From the IMG/VR virus record IMGVR_UViG_3300042445_001485: a stretch of 64,000 bases of DNA, one strand, 5' to 3'. The stretch is from a virus (lineage: Duplodnaviria > Caudoviricetes). The translations under genes were made by a program, and so were the position numbers. Below, piece after piece: positions 1-15,169 of the stretch. The notes beneath the pieces were generated by a model. It had not been told where the DNA came from. It did no database searches and worked only from the letters and a program-made list of their open reading frames with translations. How positions within the stretch are numbered: position 1 is the stretch's first letter; each line of letters opens with the position of its first letter.

Positions 1-125
1 GAAGTAATCCTGTTGAATCTAAAGCATAACTCTATAGCATGAGTGCATCCGTCTGTGACAACCACATAAGGTGCGCCGGTATATTCTGCCAACGCAGATT
101 CAAATTTAAACAGGTCGTGAAACAT
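1..125 (-). CDS. DegT/DnrJ-type PLP aminotransferase-like protein (N-terminal part, runs off the window)
   Basis: Hand translation MFHDLFKFESALAEYTGAPYVVVTDGCTHAIELCFR resembles the N-terminus of sugar aminotransferases. Overlaps the end of hldD. Confidence 0.55.
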   Translation of the reverse strand, partial: MFHDLFKFESALAEYTGAPYVVVTDGCTHAIELCFRFNRIT

Positions 126-951
126 CGGGGTTTACCTTGATCCAATCTTTGATTGACATCCAATTTTGTGGACCGATAGCCTCGTACAACTTGTTAGTGT
201 TGGCACAAGTATAGACTTGATAATTGCCTTTTAATACTTCTGGCATATCTATATATTCTATGTTGGCGTGAGTTAGTCTAACAATTTGATCAGCTACATG
301 TTTGAAACTTACAGCAGTACCAGTACCCACATTCCAGATTCCTGAATTGATTACTTGCTGTATGAATTGTATATGTGTCCAGGCAACATCTTCAACACAA
401 ACAAAATCTCGCAAATAATAATCACTATTATGAAATAGTTTTATGGTATTTGTAGCATTGGCCTGTAATCTAAATTGGGTGACAGGACTTGCTTGTGATC
501 CTTTATGTTCTTCATGATTACCATAAACATTAAAGTATCTAAATCCTTGCACAATGATTTTTCCGGTGGGATTTTGTTCTACATGTCGATCAAACAGGTA
601 CTTGCTCCAAGCATAGGGGTTGCGAGGATCGGGCGGACTATCTTCTCGAAAATCAGATACAAGTCCGTACACACTGGCACTACTGGCATACTGTAAGTTA
701 ATGCCTTCTTCACAACAGCGTTGATACAGCCAACGACTAAAGTCGTAGTTGGTACGCAGTATGCTATCAACATCACGCTCTACTGTACTTGAGTTTGCCC
801 CCAAGTGTACGATCCAATCATAATCATTGAACAACAGATCGAGTTCATCTGTACTATCCCATCCGTCAACATGCCAGTCGGTATGTTGTTTAAAATAGGC
901 AATTAGATTTCGACCAATGAACCCTTGACTGCCGGTGACCATTATTCTCAT
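106..951 (-). CDS. hldD: ADP-L-glycero-D-manno-heptose 6-epimerase
   Basis: GSQGFIG Rossmann motif, HLGANSST, YASSASVYG, YAWSK (YxxxK), RYFNVYG, RDFVCVED. Confidence 0.88.
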   Translation of the reverse strand: MRIMVTGSQGFIGRNLIAYFKQHTDWHVDGWDSTDELDLLFNDYDWIVHLGANSSTVERDVDSILRTNYDFSRWLYQRCCEEGINLQYASSASVYGLVSDFREDSPPDPRNPYAWSKYLFDRHVEQNPTGKIIVQGFRYFNVYGNHEEHKGSQASPVTQFRLQANATNTIKLFHNSDYYLRDFVCVEDVAWTHIQFIQQVINSGIWNVGTGTAVSFKHVADQIVRLTHANIEYIDMPEVLKGNYQVYTCANTNKLYEAIGPQNWMSIKDWIKVNPDVSRPV

Positions 952-1718
952 ACAACCTCATCTACACTGGGTGCATAGTTACCGATGTGTTGTACAGTGA
1001 CAGCACTGGCACGGATGGCAAAGTTTATAGCAGGAGCCATGTTATCTTCTATTAGATATTTGTATGTCAATGCCGCTAAAAATGTATCTCCGGCACCGCA
1101 CACATCGGCAACTTCCACACGCCTAGTAGTAAAATGTATGTCATTCCATACGGCACCTTTATCACCTTGTGTGACAATTAGATCTGTACACCGACTGGTG
1201 ATACGACTCAATTCAAGTTGATTAATTTTTACTATACAGCCTTCAAGTCTTGCTAGATCTGTTTTCTTTGTGTCAACAAAAATAGGTCCTGTAAATCTTT
1301 GTTGTAATTCAGCAATTAACTTGTAAGTCACAGTGCCCTTGTTATAGTCACTGATAACAATAGCATCAAATTTTTCTGGCATGGCATGTAAGAACGCCAA
1401 GTTAAATTCTGGCCAATTTTCAAGTGGTGTACACTTACTATCGCTGTCGATGCGTACAATTTGTTGTTTACTGCGACTGTCAATCAGTCTAGTTTTTGTT
1501 GATTTTTCACAATGCAAGTAAAGAACTTCGCATCCTAGCATTTGTAAGTTTTTTAATACATTACCTGCCATGCCAGGTTTGCGTTCTTCGTGTGTGCATT
1601 CAAACACCGGCACAGGAGCCTCGGGACTGATACGATCCACAGTTCCAAACTGGTAAACATCAACGCAGTCGTCGCCGATTAGTAATATCTTGAATTGTCT
1701 TGGTTGTTGAGTATTCAT
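948..1718 (-). CDS. D-glycero-D-manno-heptose-7-phosphate kinase (RfaE domain I, PfkB family)
   Basis: GTVDRISPEAPVPV, PGMAGNV, ISDYNKG, DVCGAGDTF. Confidence 0.88.
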   Translation of the reverse strand: MNTQQPRQFKILLIGDDCVDVYQFGTVDRISPEAPVPVFECTHEERKPGMAGNVLKNLQMLGCEVLYLHCEKSTKTRLIDSRSKQQIVRIDSDSKCTPLENWPEFNLAFLHAMPEKFDAIVISDYNKGTVTYKLIAELQQRFTGPIFVDTKKTDLARLEGCIVKINQLELSRITSRCTDLIVTQGDKGAVWNDIHFTTRRVEVADVCGAGDTFLAALTYKYLIEDNMAPAINFAIRASAVTVQHIGNYAPSVDEVV

Positions 1719-2070
1719 CTTTTAATTTGAAAAATTCTATTTGCTTGCAATATTCTTGTCCAATAATTGGATAGCCTTTGTAGTCACTGCCCTTGACCAT
1801 GATATCAACACCGTACTGCTTGATCGTGTCAACTAATTCTTGATCAGAATCAAAAATACAAACCTTGTCAACATATTTTAAACTCTCTAGCATAAATTGT
1901 CTATCAATTTGGTTATTGATAGGTCTAGCACTACCTTTTAGTTCTTGAACTCGTCTATCTGAGTCTATAGCAACTAATACTTCATCACCAAGACTACAAG
2001 CATATTCTAGCATTTCGAGATGACCTCGATGAACGATATCAAAGGTGCCGTTAACAAATACTCGGGTCAT
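1660..2070 (-). CDS. D-glycero-D-manno-heptose-1-phosphate adenylyltransferase (RfaE domain II)
   Basis: NGTFDIVHRGH (HxGH), DSDRRVQELKG, RPIN, VKGSDY, YSTT. Confidence 0.88.
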   Translation of the reverse strand: MTRVFVNGTFDIVHRGHLEMLEYACSLGDEVLVAIDSDRRVQELKGSARPINNQIDRQFMLESLKYVDKVCIFDSDQELVDTIKQYGVDIMVKGSDYKGYPIIGQEYCKQIEFFKLKDEYSTTKTIQDITNRRRLR

Positions 2071-2426
2071 CGTTGGCTATCACCTTTGCCCACACGATAG
2101 TTGTCTTCCACACTGTCTGGTGTACTAACTTCGATTACCGTACCAGCTTCAACGCATTCTAGTTGATGCGGCTTGCAAGGTTCATTGTGCCAGACTGCAC
2201 CGTCACGCAATTCTGTTTCGTGTTGTTCAGCGGTGGCAGTATCAATCCACCGAACAATAAATTTACCTGATTGTACATACCAAGTTTCTTCTTTGTCTCT
2301 ATGAAAGTGCATACTGAACTTGGCACCGGTGTTGAAGTTCATGAATTTGCCGCAGTATCGGTCGTTCGTGGCCCAGATAAATTCTGATCCCCAACCTTTT
2401 GGAACTAGGCCTTTTAGTTGTGTCAT
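2067..2426 (-). CDS. Cupin-fold protein (sugar-phosphate isomerase-like)
   Basis: KGWGSE, SMHFHRDKEETWYV, PHQLEC, IEVST cupin motifs. Confidence 0.7.
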   Translation of the reverse strand: MTQLKGLVPKGWGSEFIWATNDRYCGKFMNFNTGAKFSMHFHRDKEETWYVQSGKFIVRWIDTATAEQHETELRDGAVWHNEPCKPHQLECVEAGTVIEVSTPDSVEDNYRVGKGDSQR

Positions 2427-3394
2427 TTAGTGTACCATTTGTGTGCTGAGTCGATAATAGTTTCGATGTTGCTGTATTTGGGAACCCATCCTAATAGGTT
2501 CTTTGCCTGTGTGGCGTCTGCTACTAGTATATCTGGATCGCCAGGGCGTCTTGTTCCGTAATTGACAAATGGTAGTCCGTATTTGTTAAACACATAATCA
2601 ACAATTTGTTTATTACTTATACCCTCCCGAGTGCCAAGATTTAAAACATAAGCACCTGGTTGCGGATAGTCATCTAACAGGTAGTTGACACCCAATATGT
2701 GCGCTTGTGCCAAATCCCATACGTGTACATAGTCTCGAACACAAGTACCATCATCTGTGTCGTAATCGTCACCGTTGATGGTAAACGCACGATCAGCAAT
2801 GCTGGCTTCTAATGCACGAGCAACAATATGTGTAGCGCCCGGTTCTTGACCTAGATCCGAGTTAAAGGGCTCGGCACCTGCCGCATTGAAGTACCTAAAA
2901 CACATGCTATGAATATCGTATGCTCGGAAGTAATCATCCAGTATGCGTTCAGTCATGGCCTTGGTGGCACCATAGGGACTGATAGGTTGTATGTCACTGC
3001 CTTCATCGGTGGGCCAAGTGTCGGGCACACCATAAACACTGGCACTGCTACTAAACAAGATCACAGGCCGTTTGGACATGTGTCTAACAACATTCAACAA
3101 GGCAATGGTCTTAACTATGTTGTTGGTGTAGTATTCAGCGGGGTCAGTCATGCTGGGTCCAACCAAGCTGGTACCAGCACAATGCACAACAACATCAGGT
3201 TCTAAATTAACAATCAGTGACAATGCCTCGTCACTGGCAAAATCGGCAATCAGATATCCATCAATGTCTTTGAGAGTATGATCTCGTTTGATTTGATCAA
3301 TGATGTTTACAGTATCATTGTTTTGTTTAAATGCTCGCGCAACATGGCTACCTATGTAGCCACATCCACCTGTTACAACAACAGTTCTGTTCAT
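2423..3394 (-). CDS. galE: UDP-glucose 4-epimerase
   Basis: GGCGYIGSH, FSSSASVYG, PYGATK, RYFNAAGA, DGTCVRDYVHV, RRPGDP. Confidence 0.87.
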   Translation of the reverse strand: MNRTVVVTGGCGYIGSHVARAFKQNNDTVNIIDQIKRDHTLKDIDGYLIADFASDEALSLIVNLEPDVVVHCAGTSLVGPSMTDPAEYYTNNIVKTIALLNVVRHMSKRPVILFSSSASVYGVPDTWPTDEGSDIQPISPYGATKAMTERILDDYFRAYDIHSMCFRYFNAAGAEPFNSDLGQEPGATHIVARALEASIADRAFTINGDDYDTDDGTCVRDYVHVWDLAQAHILGVNYLLDDYPQPGAYVLNLGTREGISNKQIVDYVFNKYGLPFVNYGTRRPGDPDILVADATQAKNLLGWVPKYSNIETIIDSAHKWYTK

Positions 3395-3576
3395 TATTTT
3401 GCTTTGGCAGCTACTCTCGCATTTTTAGTTTCGGTAATTTCGTTACGGCGTGCCTTGACTGCTTTACCTAGTTCTACCAGGGCCTTGCGAGCACGAGTGC
3501 CTGCGGCATTGTTACCGGCTTCAAACTTTGCACTCTCTGCTAGATATGCGTCAAAATGTTCTTGTAAATTTGTCAT
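3394..3576 (-). CDS. Histone H1-like nucleoid protein (Hc1 family-like)
   Basis: KFEAGNNAAGTRARKAL resembles the Hc1 core GNKAAAQRVR. Basic 60-aa protein. Start moved to the ATG at 3576, which follows an AAGGA SD. Confidence 0.68.
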   Translation of the reverse strand: MTNLQEHFDAYLAESAKFEAGNNAAGTRARKALVELGKAVKARRNEITETKNARVAAKAK

Positions 3577-3605
3577 TTTATTTTCCTTTGTTAAATGATT
3601 ATTGA

Positions 3606-4112
3606 TCAACTATTCAATACTTTTGCCACTGAATTCATCACACTGGCAATACGGCCGATGTCACGAAGTTGTTCTACTGTGTAGCCTTCTTGCTTCAATG
3701 TTTCATAATGTGCTTTCACACAGAAGTGACACTTGCCCACAATACTTGCTGCCAAACTAAATGCTTCAAAGTTTGACTTGGTAGTTCCACCGTGGCTGGC
3801 AATGGCATTCATGCGTAACTGTGCTGGTAATCCTTTCAATGCTGGATCATCTGCCATCTCAACATAGGGATACCATACATTGTTCTGGGCCATAATACTT
3901 GCGGCGGTCATTGCTGACTCTGCGTGTACCGGAGCATCTGCTAAAATTACACTTAGTATTTTACCGTTACCAGTTGCGGCAAGTGCGGCCACGGCGCAAC
4001 CCATGGCAACATCTGCATCCAATGTGCTACGCAAAAGAACAGCATCAAGATTCAACTTGGTGTCTTTTGCGTAGTCTGGCAACGCCGATTTAACTGCATC
4101 AATGAATGCCAT
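3606..4112 (-). CDS. ahpD: Alkyl hydroperoxide reductase D
   Basis: LPDYAKD..LNL N-terminus, MAQNNVWY, GKCHFCVKAH (CxxC). Adjacent to ahpC. Confidence 0.85.
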   Translation of the reverse strand: MAFIDAVKSALPDYAKDTKLNLDAVLLRSTLDADVAMGCAVAALAATGNGKILSVILADAPVHAESAMTAASIMAQNNVWYPYVEMADDPALKGLPAQLRMNAIASHGGTTKSNFEAFSLAASIVGKCHFCVKAHYETLKQEGYTVEQLRDIGRIASVMNSVAKVLNS

Positions 4113-4669
4113 TATAAAGTCTCACCACCAACGGTGCGGTTACATGCACATAGTTCGCCAGTTTGAAGAGCATCTAAAATACGTAGAGTTTCTTCTGGAT
4201 TACGACCAACATTCAAGTTGTTAACTGTTACATGTTGAATAACATTGTCTGGGTCAACAATAAATGTTGCACGAAGTGCGGCACCTGCTGGAGTATAAAA
4301 TACACCCAACTGTTCAATCAAACTTAGATTTTCATTTGTTTCTGGGTTCCAACGCTGTGTGTCAGCAAATTGGTTGTGTGTGATTTTGATTAGATCACTG
4401 TGACTCTTTTGCCATGCCACCTTGCAGAACTCGTTGTCTGTGCTACCTGTGAGCAATACAGCGTCACGATCCGCAAAGTCACCTGTTAACTTGTCATAGG
4501 CCACAATTTCTGTGGGGCATACAAATGTAAAGTCTTTTGGATAGTAAACGATGATTTTCCACTTGCCTTCAAATGACTCATCTGTGATGTCAAAGAACGC
4601 ATCTTCTGGTTGTCCTGGCTTGACGCCCGTGACTACGAATTTTTCTAACTTATTGCCAACTGTTTTCAT
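4112..4669 (-). CDS. ahpC: 2-Cys peroxiredoxin
   Basis: YYPKDFTFVCPTE peroxidatic motif, VGRNPEETLR, resolving GELCAC. Confidence 0.92.
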   Translation of the reverse strand: MKTVGNKLEKFVVTGVKPGQPEDAFFDITDESFEGKWKIIVYYPKDFTFVCPTEIVAYDKLTGDFADRDAVLLTGSTDNEFCKVAWQKSHSDLIKITHNQFADTQRWNPETNENLSLIEQLGVFYTPAGAALRATFIVDPDNVIQHVTVNNLNVGRNPEETLRILDALQTGELCACNRTVGGETL

Positions 4670-4695
4670 TATATTTTTTCCTTTATATTAAACGA

Positions 4696-5922
4696 TTAAT
4701 TTTCTTCTAAACTTTGCTCTGTTGCAGTAGCAACGATACGCTCCAATGCCAGAGTAGGATCCCACTCTCGACAATACTTCTTGCGATTAGCACGACCCTT
4801 GGCAGAGTCTGGATCATATTCAATCCAAGTAAACTCGGTACCGTCACAGTCGGGACAATGGTCGTTATAGTCTGCATCGGTATGCCGGTCTTCCCCCATT
4901 CCTACCCAACCACATTTCTTATTATCACACGAAATATCTACAGGTTCTGGTGGTTGGTTGACCCATGAACCGGTGTCCCAGTTGTATCCTGACCAGGTAA
5001 CAATCTCTCCTGTGATAGGATTGAACTTGCCGTATTCCCATTCACCAAACTGTGTGCCATCCCAGTATGCTGTGCCATATGTTGTACCATAGTGTCGCCA
5101 TGTACAACTGTAATAGCCTGGGAGAGTGGGTTGGACTTTTGTAAATTTAAATGTCTCAGACCGTTCCCAAGTGCTGGGACTTGATCCATGTGGAGGATGT
5201 CCCCAGTTTTTTTCTTCGGGTGTATAGGTTTCCCACGAATTACTATCCTTTACAAGATACATTCCAAAGTCGCTACTCTTGCCATCTGTGCTACCACCCC
5301 AGTTATCAATGTCTTCATCGTCGTAAGTAACACCATTGACCAGTTCTTCTCCATCAATTTCATCGTAGCACAAGGTTAATTTGGTAATGTCAAACGGTTG
5401 TGTAAGTTCGATGTGGCCTTCGAAGAATGTGCCTTTTTCGTTACTGCTACCGACAAACACCACAGTACCCACAGGTTTACTACCAATCCATGCTTCGTCA
5501 CCACATGACCATTCAGGGCTGTCGTCACTGCCGCCATCGCAATCGTCTAGACTTTTCTGAAAAACGGTGTCACCTTTTTCATCTTCGATCTGTAGTGTAC
5601 CAGCATTACGGCTAACACCATTGACATGTGCCATGTCATCACATTCATACCACGAACCCGGAGGAAATGGCAGCCGGTCAACATCAAGGTTCATGTCATC
5701 TTGTACAGTTTCCTCATCGCTCCAGGCAATCTCAGACAAGTCAACTTGATGCTCCATGCAGTAGTCCCATACTGATCGGTCCACTGTGCCCATGACTTTT
5801 TCGCCACCGTAGCCCCACATGCTGACTTTGTAGGTTCTTGGTGTGAACTTGAGAGTCGCCATTAACTGCTCATACTCGGCGTTGACTGCTTCCGCTTGTT
5901 GGGTTTTATTCTTCTTTGCCAT
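4696..5922 (-). CDS. Hypothetical acidic multidomain protein with C-terminal Zn-ribbon
   Basis: 408-aa ORF with SD. CxxxxC...CPDC near the C-terminus. Confidence 0.7.
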   Translation of the reverse strand: MAKKNKTQQAEAVNAEYEQLMATLKFTPRTYKVSMWGYGGEKVMGTVDRSVWDYCMEHQVDLSEIAWSDEETVQDDMNLDVDRLPFPPGSWYECDDMAHVNGVSRNAGTLQIEDEKGDTVFQKSLDDCDGGSDDSPEWSCGDEAWIGSKPVGTVVFVGSSNEKGTFFEGHIELTQPFDITKLTLCYDEIDGEELVNGVTYDDEDIDNWGGSTDGKSSDFGMYLVKDSNSWETYTPEEKNWGHPPHGSSPSTWERSETFKFTKVQPTLPGYYSCTWRHYGTTYGTAYWDGTQFGEWEYGKFNPITGEIVTWSGYNWDTGSWVNQPPEPVDISCDNKKCGWVGMGEDRHTDADYNDHCPDCDGTEFTWIEYDPDSAKGRANRKKYCREWDPTLALERIVATATEQSLEEN

Positions 5923-5931
5923 TGTGATTCC

Positions 5932-7128
5932 TTAATACTTTGACTCATGTGTGTATCGGCGATAGTCTGTGCTCATACGCTGCCAAGACTCGCCCCGGCC
6001 TTCCATAATATCGCAGACGCGATCAATAGTGCCATCAGTCCAGTTGCTAATACTACCCATGTTGGCATGCGGCTTGACCAATAATGGCATCAACTTACGG
6101 ATGGCATCGTCTATGCTCCAAGGGACATAAAGTCGGTCAGGATCATTAGCAAAGGTTTCTGGGAAACTACGATAAGCAGGGTAAAGCACATTGCAACCCA
6201 GAGTATCAGCCTCAGATACAGTGTTTGAAACCCAATCTTGTAAAGCACAATTAAATAACACCCTAGTATCGTTAAGTAAAGCATAGTAGTCATTTTTATC
6301 CAAGTCCTCATATAGCGTCAACAGTCCGCGAGCCTGTAGATCTCTTGTACGAGCCATATAACTGTTATTGTTGCTCTTTAGTCGGGCACCCGAGAAGATA
6401 GCAAACTCCACACGATTCGTGGGATCTAGTCCCATTGCATCATGTCTACGATTCCATTCTTCAATCAAGTCCATGTAGAAGTCTGGTTGCTTTTCTTGAT
6501 CCCAGCGGGCCGCAAAGCCCACTCGCATTTTACGGTGATCAAATGATTTCAATTCGCCTGGTACTCTTGCACGGACTTCATCTTTACCGAAAGCTAGTCC
6601 GGAGATGTTGTATATAGGGGCTTCCCAGCCGGCAATTTTCATGTGCATGACCATTTCTTCATTACTGGCCAACACACCAGTTACAAAGCTATCAACCATC
6701 TTTTCATACAAGCCCATCCACTTGCCCATACCCCATACATGAACAAAATCATCAGGATCAATGCTCTGTGCAAGACAACGAACATAAATCCTAGGTCTAA
6801 GATGTTCTGGCACTTGATTAATAATGTACGGTAATGATTCAATGCCTGGCTGAAACATGTCTTCAAAGTACACAACATCTTCATTGGTGACTACCCCTTC
6901 TTTCATCCACTTGATTAGATTCATAAGTTGACTCATACCAAAGTATGTGCGTCCATGTGCGTCCAGAACTTGTCCTGTTACAATGGCTTGATCATTACTT
7001 AATGTATCACCGGGCACCAACACATAGTCGATGCCACGGCGTTCAAAGACTGCTTCATTCCAGTCTTGTAACTGTAGTGTATATCTTGCTTTGTAGGGCT
7101 CTAGGCCCATGTAGAATAACTTACGCAT
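5932..7128 (-). CDS. GT-B (GT4-like) glycosyltransferase
   Basis: FAARWDQEKQP, FNCALQDWVSNTVSEA (GT4 ExFx-LEA equivalent), LYPAYRSFPE. Start MRKLF at 7128 is coupled to the upstream stop. Confidence 0.75.
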   Translation of the reverse strand: MRKLFYMGLEPYKARYTLQLQDWNEAVFERRGIDYVLVPGDTLSNDQAIVTGQVLDAHGRTYFGMSQLMNLIKWMKEGVVTNEDVVYFEDMFQPGIESLPYIINQVPEHLRPRIYVRCLAQSIDPDDFVHVWGMGKWMGLYEKMVDSFVTGVLASNEEMVMHMKIAGWEAPIYNISGLAFGKDEVRARVPGELKSFDHRKMRVGFAARWDQEKQPDFYMDLIEEWNRRHDAMGLDPTNRVEFAIFSGARLKSNNNSYMARTRDLQARGLLTLYEDLDKNDYYALLNDTRVLFNCALQDWVSNTVSEADTLGCNVLYPAYRSFPETFANDPDRLYVPWSIDDAIRKLMPLLVKPHANMGSISNWTDGTIDRVCDIMEGRGESWQRMSTDYRRYTHESKY

Positions 7129-7394
7129 TAACGATACTTCCAATTGGTATTGGTATTGCGAGGCTTCCACTCCTTTCGTGGTTCTTTGGGATATGGACTC
7201 CAATTGTCCTTGGGAATCTTGCCTGCTTTGACTCGTTGCCATTCTCCCCATGGAGTCTTCTCGTTACCTAGATGACCTTCATCGTACACATAGCCCTGTT
7301 TCTTACAGAACTCTAAGTACTCATCGAGCTCATTGAAGAGAAAGTCAACTTCGGGTTTCATACGAAGATATTTTTTAAGCCAATCTTGTGACAT
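7128..7394 (-). CDS. Hypothetical protein
   Basis: 88-aa ORF with AAGGA SD, packed in the operon. Confidence 0.7.
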   Translation of the reverse strand: MSQDWLKKYLRMKPEVDFLFNELDEYLEFCKKQGYVYDEGHLGNEKTPWGEWQRVKAGKIPKDNWSPYPKEPRKEWKPRNTNTNWKYR

Positions 7395-7403
7395 TATATT
7401 TCC

Positions 7404-7847
7404 TTAAATTACAATTGAAAGGTTTGGACGGGTAAGGTTGTAGTGTATGACGCATCCGTTTTCACCGTCCTCGGATACTTCAATTGTGACATCACGACTG
7501 GGGTAACGCCCTGCAATTTGTATGTACAAGTCATCAGCAATCATCTCACATGACTTGTGATCTAATGCTAGTATAGCATCTTTATATAAATTTTCCAACC
7601 AGCGTTTGAATTGAATAAACTCAATATCGCGATCATTATGGAACACATCTATGCCTACTCTAAAGTGGAATATATGTCTATGTGGGTTGGCTAAAAACGA
7701 TACATCATATTCATCGCCGGTGGCCAGCATGGGATCGGTTGCGGCAGCAGGATAAAAATGAATGCCTTCCTTTTGAAATGTCACAAATATTGTGCGTTGT
7801 GCGGCCGCTTTGATTCGTTCTACAGTTTCTCTTGCTTCTTGATTCAT
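7404..7847 (-). CDS. QueD-like T-fold protein (DpdL-like)
   Basis: EGIH, LANPHRHIF (LxxxHRHxF in place of QueD CxxxHGH), SCEMIA, VSEDGENG. Confidence 0.72.
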   Translation of the reverse strand: MNQEARETVERIKAAAQRTIFVTFQKEGIHFYPAAATDPMLATGDEYDVSFLANPHRHIFHFRVGIDVFHNDRDIEFIQFKRWLENLYKDAILALDHKSCEMIADDLYIQIAGRYPSRDVTIEVSEDGENGCVIHYNLTRPNLSIVI

Positions 7848-8371
7848 AGTACTTGATCTTTGGTATATTTAGACCAATCAGTAAAAACTTTTCGATCTAA
7901 TAGGTTGTGAAGTTGGTGGCACCAAACTCCGGGGTTGGTTGATTTGAAGTCTCGATCGTCCAGCTTGATTGTAGCATTATATCCCAACTGAAATATATAG
8001 GGCAATTTGACCGAAATCATGGGAATAAAGTTATGGTATTCAACAAAACCTGCTTCAAGCAAGCCTTCCGTACAAGTGACATCAATGTCTAGTGTGCAAA
8101 GGTGTTCCTTCTCCAGGAAGTGATAAATCATCATTTCCCATTTGGCCCATTCAGCACCGTCATTGACTGCTAGGTTAGGGAAACTTTGGTTGGCACCAAA
8201 ATAGATATGTTCCACAGGTTGACTGCCTGAGTCCAGTGCTTGTGCAATATCCGCAACACTTTGTACACCAACAACAAACATTGTGTATTTGCCGTAAGCA
8301 GGTGTATGCTCTACCTCTGTGCCATAGAAAAAGTTAACACCCTTGTGTCCCTCTCTAATCATTTGATTCAT
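7844..8371 (-). CDS. Conserved-looking hypothetical protein in the modification block
   Basis: 175-aa ORF (YFGANQSF, STNPGVWCH) overlapping both neighbours. Confidence 0.7.
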   Translation of the reverse strand: MNQMIREGHKGVNFFYGTEVEHTPAYGKYTMFVVGVQSVADIAQALDSGSQPVEHIYFGANQSFPNLAVNDGAEWAKWEMMIYHFLEKEHLCTLDIDVTCTEGLLEAGFVEYHNFIPMISVKLPYIFQLGYNATIKLDDRDFKSTNPGVWCHQLHNLLDRKVFTDWSKYTKDQVL

Positions 8372-8540
8372 CCTGAAGTTGTTGCTTTAGTTTAGCAATT
8401 TCGTCTTTGAAATGCAACCTCTTTTTCTTCAATTCAGCAATCTGTTTGTCCGAAAAGTTTCCTGTGCGTTCCATTTGATCAACTTGCTTGTCCAGTGCAT
8501 GGTGCATTTCTTCTAGGTGTGCAATTCGGTTTTTAATCAT
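8355..8540 (-). CDS. YdcH/DUF465-like small coiled-coil protein
   Basis: LEEMHHALDKQV...LKKKRLHFKDEI pattern. Confidence 0.65.
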   Translation of the reverse strand: MIKNRIAHLEEMHHALDKQVDQMERTGNFSDKQIAELKKKRLHFKDEIAKLKQQLQDESND

Positions 8541-10144
8541 TGTGATCCTTCCAAGTTGTCTAGTGCTGTTGGGTCAAATTCAATTTCATCATCGTCGGCT
8601 TCTGGTTCGTCCACTGAGAATAATGAGTTAAACATGGTGTTGGAGTTTTTGGCTTTTTTGCCTTTGAATCCACGGGTACCAACAATCTCCATCCAATATG
8701 TATCATACATCTCAATGATGTCTAGAGAATCTTGACGAGTGGGAGCCGCAAAGATTGCATCCACAATGTCTTCAAATTTGGCATAGTCTCCGCCCTGGCG
8801 TTGCATCATACCGGGACGCTCGCCTGCATCAAAGCGTCGATTAGCTTCTTGTACCGCGGTAATGTGCATCCAAACATTGTGTCCCATTAGCAATGCATAC
8901 GAGAAACTATCCCACGATGTCTTGCCCCATTTGCCGTTCTTATTGACATCTGGTAGCACATCATACAGGGCTGGATCTTGGAAATTTTCTTCCGTGAGCA
9001 CAACACCTGCTTTGACCACACCTGGATTGTAGATACAGATGTCTTTCATTTTGAACATGTTGCTTAATGGACTGTCTTCCCAGCGAGGATAGATGCCATC
9101 TGCTACCACGCCGTCACTCCACTTGCGTGTGTCTACTGCATACTTCTTATCATCTGCGCTAGGAGCCATACGATAACTCCATTTGCTTTGATCTTCAAAT
9201 ACATTTTCAAAATATACCTGTCCGTTGGCTGTTGCAAGGAACGGACTGGCACAGTCGAATGAGATAGTAAATTGTGGATTAATGTACTTGCGTACTGCTC
9301 GTTGAATTACTGTGAGTAACACAGCCCACTCTAGTTTACTTGTGCCTAAGAAGTGCATCCAATCGTGTACACCTTCTTGTAATAAATTATCATACCGGAG
9401 TGCAATCAGTCGCCTGAGAATCAAATGCACATCACACATGTTCTGTCCACCCATGCCCCAACCATCAAAGTGGCGTCCTGGATACCGCACAGGATCGCAG
9501 TATTCTTTCATAAGTTCGTACCATGCATCTGCATTGGTATGATTGTCACCTTGTAGCACATTTAAAAATCGAGCACCACCTGCATCTTTACCTTTACGGT
9601 GTTTGATAAAGTATTCATTGTTGAACTTGGTGGCTTCCACGGCTTGATCCAATGTTTTAATTTGACAAGCATCACTGGCTTTTTTATCATGTATAACCCA
9701 GGTGGGAATATCTAATCCCATGCCATAGTTACTGATGCTATCCAGCCAAGTTAAAACAGCTTCCCGTTTCTTCTGTGCCTTCAAGCATCCTGAACCAGCC
9801 TTCCAGTCGCCTTCCCATAATCCTTTGGCAATCTGGAATCCACCAGAGTCACCTAGCATCAGTGTGTTGGGATCACGACCTCGAACCATGTCCTCACTAG
9901 CGTCGGGCTTTGTGAGATCTAGGTTAGCATGGCCGCCGGAGTAAAGCGACCATTTATATGGGAACAGACCCTGTTGACTATTAAGCCAATTCATCTGTTC
10001 CATATCCGTTATGCCCTGCGGAAAGCGGGCAGGGTCTACATAATCATTGTTGACTCGTTGTTTGCCTACAAATGTGGCGTAGAAGCCACTAATAGCAGGC
10101 AAGAATACAGCATAGTCTTTTTGTTTACTGGTTAAATCATCCAC
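8537..10144 (-). CDS. TGT-fold guanine transglycosylase, DpdA-like
   Basis: GDSGGFQ, GLDIP, VLQG, GWGMGG, WMHFLG, SFDCASP carry the TGT catalytic Asp, Gln and Gly positions. HxLG is the DpdA/archaeal type. No CxCxxC zinc site. Confidence 0.82.
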   Translation of the reverse strand: MDDLTSKQKDYAVFLPAISGFYATFVGKQRVNNDYVDPARFPQGITDMEQMNWLNSQQGLFPYKWSLYSGGHANLDLTKPDASEDMVRGRDPNTLMLGDSGGFQIAKGLWEGDWKAGSGCLKAQKKREAVLTWLDSISNYGMGLDIPTWVIHDKKASDACQIKTLDQAVEATKFNNEYFIKHRKGKDAGGARFLNVLQGDNHTNADAWYELMKEYCDPVRYPGRHFDGWGMGGQNMCDVHLILRRLIALRYDNLLQEGVHDWMHFLGTSKLEWAVLLTVIQRAVRKYINPQFTISFDCASPFLATANGQVYFENVFEDQSKWSYRMAPSADDKKYAVDTRKWSDGVVADGIYPRWEDSPLSNMFKMKDICIYNPGVVKAGVVLTEENFQDPALYDVLPDVNKNGKWGKTSWDSFSYALLMGHNVWMHITAVQEANRRFDAGERPGMMQRQGGDYAKFEDIVDAIFAAPTRQDSLDIIEMYDTYWMEIVGTRGFKGKKAKNSNTMFNSLFSVDEPEADDDEIEFDPTALDNLEGSQ

Positions 10145-10781
10145 GCCAAAATTTCACTTTACTTATTAATTTGTAGTCTGGAGCATAATGCTGTTTGATT
10201 TTTTCAAGATAAACAGGATTGTCTACTAGGTGTTTAAATATAGTTTTAAATATACTTCTACGAGTATCACCATCGAGACGATCTTCTGTGGTATGTTGAA
10301 AGTCATAATTTGCATATCTAGCGGCTCCGGGAATACCTTGGTTACGCAAGAACTGACTAAAGTGTAGTCGATAATCTTTATCACACCAAAAGAAAGTTGT
10401 TTTACTGGGATCTAACCCCTCAATAAAGTATACTTGTTTTTCTGTATGATCGTCAAATGTAATTTGTTCTATCAGCAGATCGTAAAATGCTTGAGTAAAC
10501 TGACTAGTATCTATGTCACGGTGATATATTGTGAAGTATTCACATATACCACTAAGCCAACGCTCCACAGGATTTCGTAACACAACCATTACATGTTTGT
10601 GATGGAACTGATCCTGGTGATAATTATAAAATTCCCAGTGTTGATCCAGTAAATTATTTTTAGTCCACGAACTGGCATTCTTAGGTATGTTAACATACAT
10701 AAGGTCGAGATTAGGCTTGCTCATGCAAGTACCGAATACATGACCTCTTGGTTCCCAGTATTGGTGGAAAGAAAATGGCAT
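10137..10781 (-). CDS. PAPS-dependent sulfotransferase (family 2-like)
   Basis: YVNIPKNASS (5'-PSB) and LRNPVERWLSG (3'-PB). ATG at 10781 forms a TAATG overlap with the clamp stop. Confidence 0.75.
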   Translation of the reverse strand: MPFSFHQYWEPRGHVFGTCMSKPNLDLMYVNIPKNASSWTKNNLLDQHWEFYNYHQDQFHHKHVMVVLRNPVERWLSGICEYFTIYHRDIDTSQFTQAFYDLLIEQITFDDHTEKQVYFIEGLDPSKTTFFWCDKDYRLHFSQFLRNQGIPGAARYANYDFQHTTEDRLDGDTRRSIFKTIFKHLVDNPVYLEKIKQHYAPDYKLISKVKFWRG

Positions 10782-11512
10782 TACTTGGTCTGTGCTGGTA
10801 ATGTATAGTTCCAAACAGCAACCCCAGAGTCCACAGTAATCTGTGCGGCACCCTCATCACTGATTCTAAATGCCTTGTCTCCGGGCAGGGCCAAGATAGC
10901 CATAACAGCCGAGACTGGCCATGACCATGCCTTGCTCAGTGTGCCTGTGACTCCGGCCTGGAACACAAAGTTACCAGCGTGACTGGCATGATCACCAAAG
11001 AAGAATTTCAAGTCGCCGTTTTCTGTTCGAGCAGTAAAAGTGGTTTCGTCACTGTTAGCACTGGCTTGAAAACGCAGGCGCTGAATGTTTTGTACAGTGG
11101 GCGCAAAGTCCACATTCCATTTAACTGGACGCATCTTTTGATTCTTTAACTTGTCGTTGATGATTTCCGCCGACATAAAACGATAATCGTTTTTAAAGTC
11201 GCCGGCTTTGTTTTCAAAGTGAATACCAACTGGAACCGACTCGCCGTTGCGATCTTGTTTGGTGATTGTGAGCTTGGCATCTTCCTTGTATTCTGGAATA
11301 CCCAATATAGTGTTCAACTTGGCCAAGTTTGGCATACCAAAAGTGCCAACAAAGTCTGGGTGTGCGCCTTTAAATACTGCGTCCACCACAACTGTTTTGT
11401 CTTCGGCCAGAGCAATAACTCGAGTTTCGGCATCTGTGCCTGTGACCTTGACCAAGTCAATAGTGCCTAGTCCGTGTGTGTGCTGTACAATGTCTTTCAA
11501 ATAGTCTTGCAT
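10781..11512 (-). CDS. Sliding clamp (gp45/PCNA-like)
   Basis: 243 aa, two-domain beta-rich pattern, located near polB. Assignment from size, context and recollection of homologues. Confidence 0.6.
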   Translation of the reverse strand: MQDYLKDIVQHTHGLGTIDLVKVTGTDAETRVIALAEDKTVVVDAVFKGAHPDFVGTFGMPNLAKLNTILGIPEYKEDAKLTITKQDRNGESVPVGIHFENKAGDFKNDYRFMSAEIINDKLKNQKMRPVKWNVDFAPTVQNIQRLRFQASANSDETTFTARTENGDLKFFFGDHASHAGNFVFQAGVTGTLSKAWSWPVSAVMAILALPGDKAFRISDEGAAQITVDSGVAVWNYTLPAQTK

Positions 11513-11534: not shown

Positions 11535-11576
11535 ATTATAGATGATTGTATTTAGACCTGTCAACTTATTTGACAG
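11535..11576 (-). promoter_or_regulatory. Sigma70-type promoter with internal late TAAATA and an inverted repeat over the -35
   Basis: Minus strand TTGACA(11564-11559)-N18-TATAAT(11540-11535). TAAATA at 11554-11549. Inverted repeat CTGTCAA/TTGACAG at 11558-11576. Confidence 0.75.
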
Positions 11577-12498
11577 TTTTTTCTTTGATGATGCCCAGAG
11601 CCTGATGTCCTTTTACAGTAAACAATTCTCCCGGTTTCTTGAGTTCAAGCCAACTAACAGCAGGCTCATAGTCTCGGGCATAAGTTATTTCAAAGCCTAA
11701 TTGTTGACATACCGGCACCAACATACTTTTGGGAACATAACTCATAAAGTAGCTTTCAGCATAGGCCGCACCATCAGGCAAATCGCCGTTGTTGTAACTA
11801 AACATGAAAACACCACCTGGGCGCAGTAAATTGTAAACTTGTCGTAGTATTTTCTTAATTGAATCTAGACTTTTGTAATTAAAATGATTCCATGAAAACA
11901 CAAGATTAAATTGTTTTTGTGGAAGTATGCCATACTCATCATTGGTAATTACATATGGTCGCATTCGGCGTTGATACTCTGCGGCATAATTACCTATGGT
12001 TGCATCCAGGAATTCTTGATGTTCGTCTGCCAAGTATAACGGATCGCTTGCCACTAAGAAGTTAGTCCATTCTCCATCTCTGCAACCGATTTCCAGTGCT
12101 GGGTATTTCCAAGACGAGTATAACGCAATTCTGCTTTCTATCTCTTGTTGTATTTGGCCGGGAATGTACATCACACGAACTTTACGAATACTGGCAGGAC
12201 CGTCGTATTGCAGTTCTAGTTCGTAGTTGTCTAAAAAGAACAATGAGCTTTTGGCATTGATCTCTGCATTGATCTCATCAATGATTTGTTGTACACGCTC
12301 TGTGGGAGCCAATACCGCTGTGCGAATATCTCTATAGTCTTTGATCAACTCGTTGAGCATACCACTATACGTGTCAGATGCACCCTGGCTGGCCAGACCT
12401 ATGTTTAATCGCAGGTTATCAACACTGGCCAGTACAGGGTCCAGAAAGAAAGATGCTTTTAGTCTTTCTCTTAGGGAAACAAGTTCACTTAATTTCAT
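11566..12498 (-). CDS. Class I SAM-dependent methyltransferase with N-terminal helical region
   Basis: LEIGCRDG, FNLVFSWNHF, LLRPGGVFMFSY. Confidence 0.78.
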   Translation of the reverse strand: MKLSELVSLRERLKASFFLDPVLASVDNLRLNIGLASQGASDTYSGMLNELIKDYRDIRTAVLAPTERVQQIIDEINAEINAKSSLFFLDNYELELQYDGPASIRKVRVMYIPGQIQQEIESRIALYSSWKYPALEIGCRDGEWTNFLVASDPLYLADEHQEFLDATIGNYAAEYQRRMRPYVITNDEYGILPQKQFNLVFSWNHFNYKSLDSIKKILRQVYNLLRPGGVFMFSYNNGDLPDGAAYAESYFMSYVPKSMLVPVCQQLGFEITYARDYEPAVSWLELKKPGELFTVKGHQALGIIKEKTVK

Positions 12499-12505
12499 AA
12501 TTGTA

Positions 12506-15169
12506 TTACTCAAATGTAAATAGACTATCAAATGTTGATTTGGTGTCAGTGCTAGATAAAATATCCCAATCCAACACACCCAATAGGTTTTCTATCTTTT
12601 GATCTACAATACCTGTTTCCATCAAGTTCTGATCAAACGGCAAATCTTTAAACCATTGTGGTATGTGTGTTTCATCTGTGGGATAACCAACGCTGGTATA
12701 ACCTAATGGATTATCTTTTAGTTTACACACAACAGTTTTCATTCCATCGATGATTTGCAACGAATAGTTATCCCCGTGCATCCTTCTCAGGTTGTTCCAG
12801 TTCATTGCGGCTCTTACATGTCCCGGCATGTTGGCTCGACCTAATCTAGCTTCTTCTGCTGTATATTTGGTTAAATTGTTTACACGCTTGGGAGTACCCT
12901 TTTCCCAGGCTGGTCTTTCTTGGAACGCATACTTGAATTCTTTAATTTTTTCAATTACTTTTTCTCTGGCATCATCGCTGGTTAGCACATCCATGAGAAT
13001 TTCACTTAGGAACTCTTGTACAATTTTAGGAGTGTCACTGCGTTTCAAATCAAGTCCCATGGCTTTTACTTTGCCCGGTTTACCATTCACATCCAAGCGA
13101 TTGTTTTCCATATCGTAGATCAATACAGCATAACGCTTCTTCTTGATAAACAGGCCTTTGCGAGCCACAAGCTCGCGACCACCCATGATGATTGCACCCA
13201 TTTCTCGGGGGCAATGGCAGGCCCGTTCCATAAACCCCGGAAACGATTCGTTCACACCATCAGCGATGGTGTCGTACAGTTGTACAGCAATGTCTTTGTT
13301 CCATTCCATTGCACCTGCGGCTACTTCCGCTTGGACCGCTGGCCACGCTGTAAAGTATACCGAGTCTGTGTCGCCATAGATAATGCTCGAACCAACGTGG
13401 TCGTAGTTGCCTGTAATTGCTTGGTTAACTGTGGCGTCCATGTGCTTGGCAATGATCCTACCAGTAAGTGTCGTACTTTGGCCAATTCGTTGGTCAAAGA
13501 ACCTGCAATGTGGGTTGAGGATAGCCCCGTAGAGCGAATTAAGATTGATCTTTTTAACGAGTTGGCGTTTATCCCAGAATGCTTTGTCTTCAGTAGCTTC
13601 TGCGGTTTTCTTTTTTGCTTGCATTTCTTGTCTTTCTGCATACCACCTTTCTAGCAGTCCGGGAATAATACCCTTCATGTCATATCTAAATATAGTACCA
13701 TTGGCACTGAGTGTCCACGGCTGATTACCATTGAATATTAATCGCCAAACTTCAGCGGCACTATGAATTGTCTCTTCACCGCTTTCCCAATCTATGGTTA
13801 TTTCTGCGCCAAGTTCATTGGCCATCACGGATTGATATTCCAAGGTACCAAACATGTTTTCCCACGCATCAGCAAAAGATGAACCTGCTGCCATCTTTTC
13901 CTTGATGTAGTGGTCGGTCATTGTGGTCCGGAGTTGACCAACGATGGTTTCTGGGCCCATGTTAAGGGCTCTAATAGCCGAGGGGTAGAGACTGTTGATG
14001 TCGATTGCGCCAATGTATTCATGGACGCCTTTTTTGGGATAAGCAACATAGGCACCTGCGGCTTGCGTTTCTCTTGGATCATCTTTGCTCTTTCTATTAG
14101 GAACAATCATACCACGCTGGTGAGCTTCATTAATGATAGCCTGCTCTGTTACTGCAACCGCACCCATTGTGGTTGGTAACAACACCGTGTTGTCGTGAGC
14201 AAGTTCATTGGCCAAGTCCAGGAAGCGAAGCTTCTTGTCCAGTTTGGCCAATAGCATGGTATCTTGTCTGTTATAGTCAATGAACTTGGGAAAGTCCTTG
14301 TTGTACAATTGATCCAGGGTGCCTTCGTAAGCAACCTTACTACCACATTCTTCATACTCACCAATTGCGTCTAGACTATAACTGTGTCGTTCCTCGTAGG
14401 TGTACTTGCGGTACAGTTGCATATAATCCATATGCACCCGACCAGCCAAGTCAAAAGTCAAATTTTCAGCACCAAAGCGTTCAAAGGTTCTTTGCTTGGG
14501 TAATTGTCCCCATAGACAAAAGCGTCTTGTATCATCCTTGCTGAGCACACGAGTGATACGCATCACAGTATAGGGAATATCAAAACCTTCCGAGTTCCAT
14601 CCGCTAAGGATATCGGCATCTTCGATCAAGTCAAGGAATGTGTTTAACATATCCTCTTCTCTTTCAAACAAATAGCAATTGTCGTATCTGTTGCAAATCT
14701 CTTCGGCGGTTTCCCACGAATAGCTTTTTGGTGGAACTACAAGTGTTACTAACTTGTCCATCCAATCCAAGTATATAGATATTGCTGTCACAGGATTAAA
14801 TGGGTCTTCGGGCTTTGAAAAGCCACGCTGGGGATCAAAGTCTACCTCAATGTCAAAAAATGCAGTCTGTAACTTGGGACTGTTTACACCCGAGTAGTTT
14901 CCTTCAAGGCAACGAAATATGGGATTGATATCACTTTCCCACAGTCTCTTACCTGAATTAATTTTCAACTCTTTTTGGAATTCTTTGCTGTTACGACTAC
15001 TAAACCTGCTGACAGGGGTATCGTAAATTGTACGGAATTTGCCACGCGGATCATCATAGTAAAAAATATAATCAGCCGGGTACTCACGATATACTCGTTC
15101 TCCGTTGACTCGCTCAACTATGTGTATCCGATCTTTTGCTCTATCAAATAGAGCATCTACATAACTCAT
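12506..15169 (-). CDS. Family B DNA polymerase (gp43-like)
   Basis: Exonuclease motifs FFDIEVD, GWNSEGFDIPY, YNRQD. Polymerase motifs DINSLYPS, KINLNSLYG, YGDTDS, KKRY. Confidence 0.96.
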   Translation of the reverse strand: MSYVDALFDRAKDRIHIVERVNGERVYREYPADYIFYYDDPRGKFRTIYDTPVSRFSSRNSKEFQKELKINSGKRLWESDINPIFRCLEGNYSGVNSPKLQTAFFDIEVDFDPQRGFSKPEDPFNPVTAISIYLDWMDKLVTLVVPPKSYSWETAEEICNRYDNCYLFEREEDMLNTFLDLIEDADILSGWNSEGFDIPYTVMRITRVLSKDDTRRFCLWGQLPKQRTFERFGAENLTFDLAGRVHMDYMQLYRKYTYEERHSYSLDAIGEYEECGSKVAYEGTLDQLYNKDFPKFIDYNRQDTMLLAKLDKKLRFLDLANELAHDNTVLLPTTMGAVAVTEQAIINEAHQRGMIVPNRKSKDDPRETQAAGAYVAYPKKGVHEYIGAIDINSLYPSAIRALNMGPETIVGQLRTTMTDHYIKEKMAAGSSFADAWENMFGTLEYQSVMANELGAEITIDWESGEETIHSAAEVWRLIFNGNQPWTLSANGTIFRYDMKGIIPGLLERWYAERQEMQAKKKTAEATEDKAFWDKRQLVKKINLNSLYGAILNPHCRFFDQRIGQSTTLTGRIIAKHMDATVNQAITGNYDHVGSSIIYGDTDSVYFTAWPAVQAEVAAGAMEWNKDIAVQLYDTIADGVNESFPGFMERACHCPREMGAIIMGGRELVARKGLFIKKKRYAVLIYDMENNRLDVNGKPGKVKAMGLDLKRSDTPKIVQEFLSEILMDVLTSDDAREKVIEKIKEFKYAFQERPAWEKGTPKRVNNLTKYTAEEARLGRANMPGHVRAAMNWNNLRRMHGDNYSLQIIDGMKTVVCKLKDNPLGYTSVGYPTDETHIPQWFKDLPFDQNLMETGIVDQKIENLLGVLDWDILSSTDTKSTFDSLFTFE

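Follow-up and report, generated by a model that had tools for sequence, protein, structure and literature searches.

The 64,000-nucleotide stretch of viral DNA analysed here (IMG/VR record IMGVR_UViG_3300042445_001485; hereafter the window) is one long minus-strand gene array of about 42% G+C, and it very probably carries the deazaguanine DNA-modification island, of the DpdA3/DpdL type, of a freshwater jumbo phage of about 320-350 kb. A DpdA3-like DNA transglycosylase, the QueD-like protein DpdL and a GT4-family glycosyltransferase (GT) are encoded close together, which we read as a DpdA3/DpdL system extended by a dedicated GT. Gene linkage alone points to the deazaguanine base as the acceptor of the sugar, and we consider the chances of this to be about evenly balanced. 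A sequence-only reading of the same DNA had proposed such further glycosylation of the base; the gene identities and the linkage of GT with DpdL agree with that proposal, while the glycosylation itself stays a prediction. All the genes it described are present on the minus strand where it had placed them. From a sulfotransferase-like gene ahead of the transglycosylase down to the GT the genes overlap by 1-17 nt or are separated by gaps of at most 9 nt, so that its description of the run from transglycosylase to GT as one coupled operon is fair.

The transglycosylase gene (8537..10144, minus strand; 535 aa, GTG start) had been called DpdA-like, with intact TGT catalytic motifs. All of these motifs were found: DSGGFQ at residues 99-104, LDIP at 144-147, LQG at 197-199, MGG at 231-233, HFLG at 264-267 and SFDC at 295-298. 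DSGGFQ, LDIP, QG, HxLG and SxD are invariant across the homologue set, and homologues with no more than 33-35% identity all keep the residues D, S, G, G, F, Q, D, H, L, G and D. The catalytic-aspartate motifs, D99-S-G-G-F-Q104 and S295-F-D297-C, align with the same motifs of DpdA3 proteins, and we take these invariant positions to be the catalytic aspartates of TGT as mapped by the Z. mobilis enzyme. Comparison by hhalign with a DpdA3 profile (ACP17 gp123, the proteins of X1, BCSR5 and BUCT-ZZ01, and the phiST prototype CGPG_00065) gave 93.6% with an E-value of 2e-7 over 194 columns spanning all motifs. HMMER searches gave no match to Pfam (E <= 10), PF01702, PF23859, NCBIfam, PHROGs or the PDB, nor did a six-sequence profile match the PDB, hence the link to DpdA3 is drawn from the profile-profile comparison and the motifs only; language-model neighbour clusters (Atlas) carry PF01702 and PF23859. 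The DpdA-like identity thus holds in the form of a remote DpdA3 relative within the TGT superfamily, for which exchange of guanine on DNA is predicted.

Homologues at 28-36% identity were identified by tblastn in PA5oct-like Pseudomonas jumbo phages (36% for PA5oct gp168), in Sinorhizobium phage Phosso and in Vibrio phage 2.275.O. The homologue of the latter has QueF, a YhhQ-like transporter, a queuosine-biosynthesis gene and FolE as neighbours, and the phage contains neither a member of the GT family nor a DpdL match, which suggests that this long transglycosylase subtype is not tied to one deazaguanine derivative. An amidohydrolase gene is also found near the transglycosylase of this phage (7905-14931 of the locus).

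DpdL (7404..7847, minus strand; 147 aa; phrog_17812, 7.5e-37) is a QueD-like T-fold paralogue with the sequence LANPHRHIF. The CxxxHGH motif of QueD is replaced by LxxxHRHxF in DpdL, which lacks the catalytic cysteine of PTPS/QueD and is the proposed 7-carboxy-7-deazaguanine (CDG) decarboxylase behind the 2'-deoxy-7-deazaguanosine (dDG) of Cellulophaga phage phiST (PMC10516641). The sequence-only reading had named the motif as a mark of DpdL, which is correct, and the 147-aa protein is a DpdL homologue for which decarboxylation of CDG would be the proposed reaction. It is 57% identical to the DpdL of ACP17 (6e-40) and 34% to that of phiST (1e-8); an alignment by hhalign with phage QueD is weak (80%, E 1.4e-5), as is a full-length match to PDB entry 2dj6 (E 0.36). 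No homologue among the 14 surveyed has lost the motif, which takes an HFH form in PA5oct and Ahp1. In two GT-free phages DpdL forms the C-terminal domain of a longer protein, with an N-terminal extension of about 260 residues in gp176 of Vibrio phage Bakedbeans (8215-9366 of the locus) and of about 185 residues in Chryseobacterium phage MA9V-3 (8494-9375).

The upstream pathway was traced in relatives of the window. Transglycosylase relatives at 70-87% identity are abundant in IMG/VR, on contigs of up to 354 kb. Five of them are jumbo genomes of 92-100% completeness; in every one FolE is accompanied by a canonical PTPS/QueD and a QueE-like gene, and none has a QueC above the cut-off. The presence of FolE, QueD and QueE without QueC is the published DpdL/dDG pattern. 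The gene order in the relatives is polB, methyltransferase, 243-aa gene, transglycosylase, 175-aa gene, DpdL, 88-aa gene, GT, epimerase, FolE, QueD and QueE. The closest relative (87% identical, on a 112-kb contig) is collinear with the window through a peroxiredoxin pair (AhpC/CMD) and the sugar genes, and its FolE and PTPS lie 6.4-9 kb past the GT, which would place the counterparts of the window just beyond its coordinate 1. A queD-leader riboswitch was not found by Rfam at E <= 1 in the FolE/QueD loci of six relatives.

The GT gene (5932..7128, minus strand; 398 aa) had been given a start at 7251 and a length of 439 aa. The gene is present, and its start is most likely the ATG at 7128, since the homologues begin there; position 7251 falls inside the preceding 88-aa gene, the stop of which is overlapped by 1 nt by the ATG at 7128. 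The AlphaFold2 (AF2) model made with the family alignment has a pLDDT of 95.2 and a pTM of 0.93. Foldseek retrieved BshA (E 4e-11), and MshA and PimA at about 1e-11, and VIA-align placed 6kih on top (Z 26.7, 344 residues aligned, root-mean-square deviation 3.7) with MshA at Z 26.5. The structural neighbours are retaining GT-B enzymes of family GT4, namely BshA, MshA, PimA, sucrose-phosphate synthase and glycogen synthase. For the window protein itself the best Pfam match is a weak one (PF13524, E 0.16), and among 57 diverse family members 36 match PF00534 (Glycos_transf_1, best 4.5e-10) and 26 match PF13692. As modelled, the protein is a true GT-B protein of family GT4, in agreement with the sequence-only reading. 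R208 and K213 are invariant and D298-x7-E306 invariant or nearly so among the 57 members, which extend down to 27% identity; because of this conservation the protein should be an active transferase. D298-x7-E306 lies in the stretch aligned to the E-x7-E motif of GT4, its first acidic residue being Asp and not Glu, and across the family the N-terminal acceptor domain shows an unusual degree of conservation. The family is very large: in a word-indexed search 7984 of 8000 scored candidates were members, and 770 clusters at 50% identity are counted.

The evidence that connects this GT with deazaguanine is its genomic position. A profile of the family finds a single copy per genome, located in cultured phages within the deazaguanine cluster. 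The GT lies 0-2.7 kb from DpdL in the window, Synechococcus phage BUCT-ZZ01, ACP17, Xanthomonas phage X1, BCSR5, Phosso and PA5oct; it adjoins DpdL in BUCT-ZZ01, ACP17, Phosso and PA5oct and is 1.4 kb off in X1 and 2.7 kb in BCSR5. In ACP17 the GT (gp124) is placed between DpdA3 (gp123) and DpdL (gp125), and in PA5oct (gp167) between the transglycosylase (gp168) and DpdL (gp166). Of five distant metagenomic representatives, 31-33% identical, four have PTPS, radical-SAM, FolE or DpdL genes as neighbours; the contig of the remaining one, of 5.5 kb, has nothing recognisable on it and is too short to judge. Overall the GT is embedded in deazaguanine genes in at least ten other phage lineages, and in close relatives the transglycosylase, 175-aa gene, DpdL and GT occur together at each of the 41 loci that have sufficient flanking sequence. 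The sequence-only reading had expected the GT to occur together with dpdA in relatives, and it does, standing beside DpdL in 12 of the 13 contexts examined.

The GT is not a constant partner of DpdL. Six cultured phages carry the GT module, and close GT-free relatives exist. Searches with a working positive control of eight whole genomes that have DpdL or the same transglycosylase type and no GT-containing cluster (phiST, MA9V-3, Roos, Bakedbeans, Ahp1, D479, RHph_I1_18 and Vibrio phage 2.275.O) found no member of the GT family. On a maximum-likelihood DpdL tree of 19 rows, with several long branches, presence of the GT calls for six changes. Well-supported branches force no fewer than three of these, and the distribution shows no clustering beyond that of shuffled labels; GT-bearing PA5oct is sister to GT-free Ahp1 with 98/96 support. 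This scatter suggests a modular add-on that was repeatedly gained and lost, which fits an optional tailoring step after DpdL. In our reading of these sequences the role of DpdL would be unchanged whether the GT is present or absent, and since closely related DpdLs occur in both settings the sugar would sit on 7-deazaguanine itself.

Two other features of GT-containing clusters were observed. In BUCT-ZZ01 the region between QueE/QueD/FolE and the DpdA3-like gene (3094-7597 of the locus) encodes a second GT4-like protein (447 aa, PF13692 3e-5) and an annotated xanthine-guanine phosphoribosyltransferase, which hints at handling of the base at the nucleotide level. Two distant contigs with the GT encode a UDG-domain protein of about 410 aa near the deazaguanine cluster (9381-10607 on L198 and 8344-9576 on L200), beside or fused with exonuclease parts of a family A polymerase.

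A four-step pathway can be proposed. FolE, QueD and QueE, encoded past the first base of the window, would make CDG from GTP, and DpdL would turn this into the phage's base, according to the published proposal by decarboxylation to 7-deazaguanine. The DpdA3-like transglycosylase would then swap guanine in DNA for that base, with the aspartates of DSGGFQ and SFDC as catalytic residues. Finally the GT4 enzyme would glycosylate the deazaguanine, as the free base prior to insertion or in DNA thereafter, with a nucleotide-sugar as the donor; in this lineage that donor may come from the adjacent kinase, nucleotidyltransferase and epimerase genes. The first three steps are modelled on homology and on the published chemistry of phiST, the fourth on gene linkage only. 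Should DpdL form 7-deazaguanine in every one of these phages, the sugar would have to be attached to an atom of this base. Candidates are the exocyclic N2, the position used in huimycin and the dapiramicins, and the electron-rich C7. C-glycosylation at C7 is chemical speculation. That a glycosylated 7-deazaguanine, either an N2-glycoside or a C7 C-glycoside, takes the place of guanine in the GT-bearing phages as a group (the freshwater jumbo group, PA5oct, ACP17, BUCT-ZZ01, X1, BCSR5 and Phosso) we put a shade below an even chance. In the present lineage the phage might make an unusual sugar of its own, of a heptose-like or deoxy-amino kind, to which the neighbouring transferases might add sulfate or methyl groups. 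If true, these phages would provide the first case of a purine with a sugar in any DNA, and with it a new chemical class of DNA modification; to our knowledge glycosylated bases of phage DNA are restricted to pyrimidines. Such a modification would bear on evasion of restriction and CRISPR and on nanopore basecalling of abundant freshwater phages, as well as on the modification-dependent nucleases and glycosylases that are being found against deazaguanine phages.

The nearest known systems each share part of this arrangement. Phage phiST, with FolE, QueD, QueE, DpdL and DpdA3 and with DNA in which guanine is fully replaced by dDG (PMC10516641), has the same LxxxHRHxF-type DpdL and a remote TGT-like transglycosylase beside a DNA polymerase, and has FolE, QueD and QueE without QueC, which here is seen in the relatives. 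Its DpdA3 is 259 aa long against 535 aa here and only remotely alignable, and it lacks the GT4 enzyme, the 175-aa protein and the two small ORFs, all four of which are embedded in the present cluster. Pseudomonas jumbo phage PA5oct (Wroclawvirus) has the long transglycosylase subtype, GT and DpdL in a row (gp168-gp166), followed by QueE, with the three genes annotated as hypothetical; it differs in having its 175-aa homologue about 27 kb away and no sugar-nucleotide run. PA5oct DNA, with a chemically unidentified modified base, withstands restriction enzymes whose recognition sites contain G (PMC12191111), and this resistance is the one indirect indication of guanine exchange on DNA.

Glycosylation of a deazaguanine has a precedent outside DNA: HuiG of the huimycin cluster of Kutzneria albida transfers GlcNAc onto the 2-amino group of a 7-deazaguanine-derived base (PMC7439116), and in the dapiramicins the 2-amino group of a 7-deazaguanine-type base is likewise glycosylated (bioRxiv 2026.04.15.718813). 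HuiG resembles the present GT in gene context, its gene being next to homologues of FolE, QueD and QueE, and in the reaction proposed for the latter, but belongs to secondary metabolism, acts on the free base, draws on a QueC/preQ0 route and has no DpdA. The alpha- and beta-glucosyltransferases of phage T4, likewise of the GT-B type, act after replication on a DNA base that has been modified before, a form of counter-defence; their acceptor is the hydroxymethyl group of a pyrimidine, giving glucosyl-hydroxymethylcytosine. The eukaryotic queuosine mannosyltransferase (QTMAN; PF12038, QTMAN_N, plus a GT1 domain) also belongs to the GT-B enzymes and attaches a sugar to a 7-deazaguanine derivative in tRNA, but its acceptor is a hydroxyl of the cyclopentenediol, which the phage pathway cannot make. 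Language-model neighbours of the GT include QTMAN-family clusters, a resemblance due to generic GT1-domain features; none of the 57 family members matches PF12038 at E <= 0.01, and a relationship with QTMAN was rejected.

Several points weigh against a glycosylated deazaguanine. The fold of the GT is silent on the acceptor, as the structures closest to it belong to common GT4 enzymes that glycosylate small molecules or glycans, and the top 50 structural matches, all of GT4 type, do not include the T4 DNA glucosyltransferases. The published product of DpdL, 7-deazaguanine, has no hydroxyl, which makes the acceptor atom speculative, and phiST produces dDG although it lacks this GT, so that the core pathway can do without it. 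The decarboxylase activity of DpdL is itself a proposal of the literature for which heterologous tests failed: no dDG was formed in E. coli when DpdA3 and DpdL of ACP17 were expressed in the absence of the GT, and those of phiST failed there as well (PMC10516641). As the sequence-only reading had said, folE, queD and queE are absent from the window; tblastn finds no homologue of FolE, QueD or QueE in its 64 kb, and their presence is deduced via relatives only. The sugar-nucleotide genes were considered as a conserved part of the module and rejected as such, being absent from the GT clusters of other lineages. Among open-access papers and preprints, none was found on glycosylated 7-deazaguanine in DNA, nor on this GT in dpd clusters.

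It is conceivable, if unlikely, that the DNA contains plain dDG or another known unglycosylated derivative and that the GT targets a phage protein, a host envelope glycan or another DNA base, the genes being clustered as early or middle genes near the replication module. The complete dDG replacement of GT-free phiST, the match of the GT fold to generic GT4 enzymes and the ADP-heptose-like gene run after the GT, which could serve envelope or virion glycosylation, would all suit this explanation. What it leaves unaccounted for is the linkage: the single-copy GT lies within 2.7 kb of DpdL in each of six cultured lineages, whose genomes range from 156 to 469 kb and differ in backbone, for which by our own arithmetic the chance is at most 0.04 each and jointly below 1e-8. 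The same neighbourhood is seen in four of the five distant metagenomic members, and in the sample the GT never occurs away from deazaguanine genes except on the one 5.5-kb contig.

A soluble small molecule as the substrate, either a pterin, as for the cyanobacterial UDP-glucose:tetrahydrobiopterin glucosyltransferase and here in concert with FolE and the PTPS-like DpdL, or free 7-deazaguanine made into a huimycin-like glycoside that is never inserted in DNA, appears improbable to us. Tetrahydrobiopterin glucosyltransferases are among the GT4 structures matched (9v0l Z 24.2, 5zes Z 23.6; range 22.5-24.2), yet they are tied with dozens of other GT4 enzymes and the family profile has no sequence match to them; a specific kinship finds no support in sequence. 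DpdL is a PTPS/QueD paralogue of unproven activity, which would allow a pterin, but without the catalytic cysteine of that family. Short-chain dehydrogenase-like genes follow the GT here, with a weaker one in PA5oct, and HuiG does glycosylate a free deazapurine; against this, the GT always accompanies a DpdA-type transglycosylase and QueE, which would be superfluous for a pterin pathway, and a benefit for the phage is not evident. It is more improbable still that the GT-like protein is a non-glycosylating scaffold or base carrier, the other unknown enzyme that DpdA3 and DpdL need for ordinary dDG. The failure of the ACP17 pair in E. coli and the conservation of the acceptor domain are in line with such a role, but the failure extends to the phiST pair, although phiST has no GT, the GT-free sister phages keep closely related DpdLs, and the (near-)invariance of R208, K213, D298 and E306 argues for transferase chemistry that was kept. 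Under the reading that we prefer, a GT that glycosylates the deazaguanine base, its role may also explain why dDG was not reconstituted with DpdA3 and DpdL of ACP17 alone.

The 175-aa alpha/beta protein (7844..8371, minus strand) had been proposed as a pathway enzyme. It has 5157 homologues and many invariant polar residues and looks enzyme-like, and there is no match to it in Pfam, PHROG, NCBIfam or Atlas features. Its AF2 model has a pLDDT of 77; the best Foldseek E-value against the PDB is 0.13 and the best Z of a VIA-wide search is 6.3, within the stated noise. The model recurrently resembles the partial barrel of QueE (Z 5.2-6.0, the highest over 131 residues; Atlas TM 0.52-0.57), at noise-level scores, while hhalign against QueE gave a null result (0.1%) and the radical-SAM cysteine motif is missing. 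Its linkage is looser than that of the other genes: the homologue in ACP17 (gp122) adjoins DpdA3, but that of PA5oct (gp121) is about 27 kb from the cluster and none was found in the clusters of X1, BCSR5, BUCT or Phosso. A 177-aa 'glycosylase' at the equivalent position in Phosso was rejected as a homologue by HMM. In the two closest relatives, L196 (8717-9280) and L197 (8699-9262), an extra gene of 187 aa, which the window lacks, is inserted between the 175-aa gene and DpdL.

Two further small genes belong to the run. A conserved ORF of 61 aa (8355..8540, minus strand), overlooked by the sequence-only reading, is situated between the genes of the transglycosylase and the 175-aa protein, with which it shares overlaps of 4 and 17 nt; it is also called at the equivalent place in L196 and L197. 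The 88-aa protein (7128..7394, minus strand) is conserved in relatives, at 76% identity in L081 and 33-37% in L009, L015 and L033, and has no match in other lineages.

Upstream of the transglycosylase, all on the minus strand, the window encodes the family B DNA polymerase polB (12506..15169; phrog_262, 8.2e-190), as had been described for this neighbourhood, a class I S-adenosylmethionine (SAM) methyltransferase-like protein (11566..12579; PF08242, PF13649, PF13489), the true start of which is probably internal to the ORF, a 243-aa protein in sliding-clamp position (10781-11512), the putative clamp of the sequence-only reading, whose sole match is a PHROG of unknown function, and a sulfotransferase-like protein (10137..10814; PF03567, E 2e-4, 22.0 bits, exactly at the curated cut-off). 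The methyltransferase-like gene, between polB and the 243-aa gene, is kept in all relatives. The sulfotransferase-like gene, between the 243-aa gene and the transglycosylase, has a homologue only in the relatives L070 and L081, other small genes replacing it elsewhere.

Downstream of the GT, between it and the epimerase (3606-5922, minus strand), are an unknown protein of 408 aa with a Cys-rich C-terminal end and a pair of AhpC peroxiredoxin and CMD (AhpD-like) genes; these are present in L196 and absent from more distant jumbo relatives. A nucleotide-sugar gene run follows (106..3394, minus strand, co-directional with the GT array), recognised by Pfam and PHROG matches. It comprises, all on the minus strand, a GDP-mannose-dehydratase-like dehydratase/epimerase (2423-3394), a cupin (2067-2426), an HldE-like nucleotidyltransferase (1660-2070), a PfkB kinase (948-1718) and a second epimerase (106-951). 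With its split HldE-like kinase/nucleotidyltransferase, two NAD epimerase/dehydratases and a cupin the run is ADP-heptose-like. It is collinear in L196, where a short DegT-like gene comes next and then FolE and PTPS.

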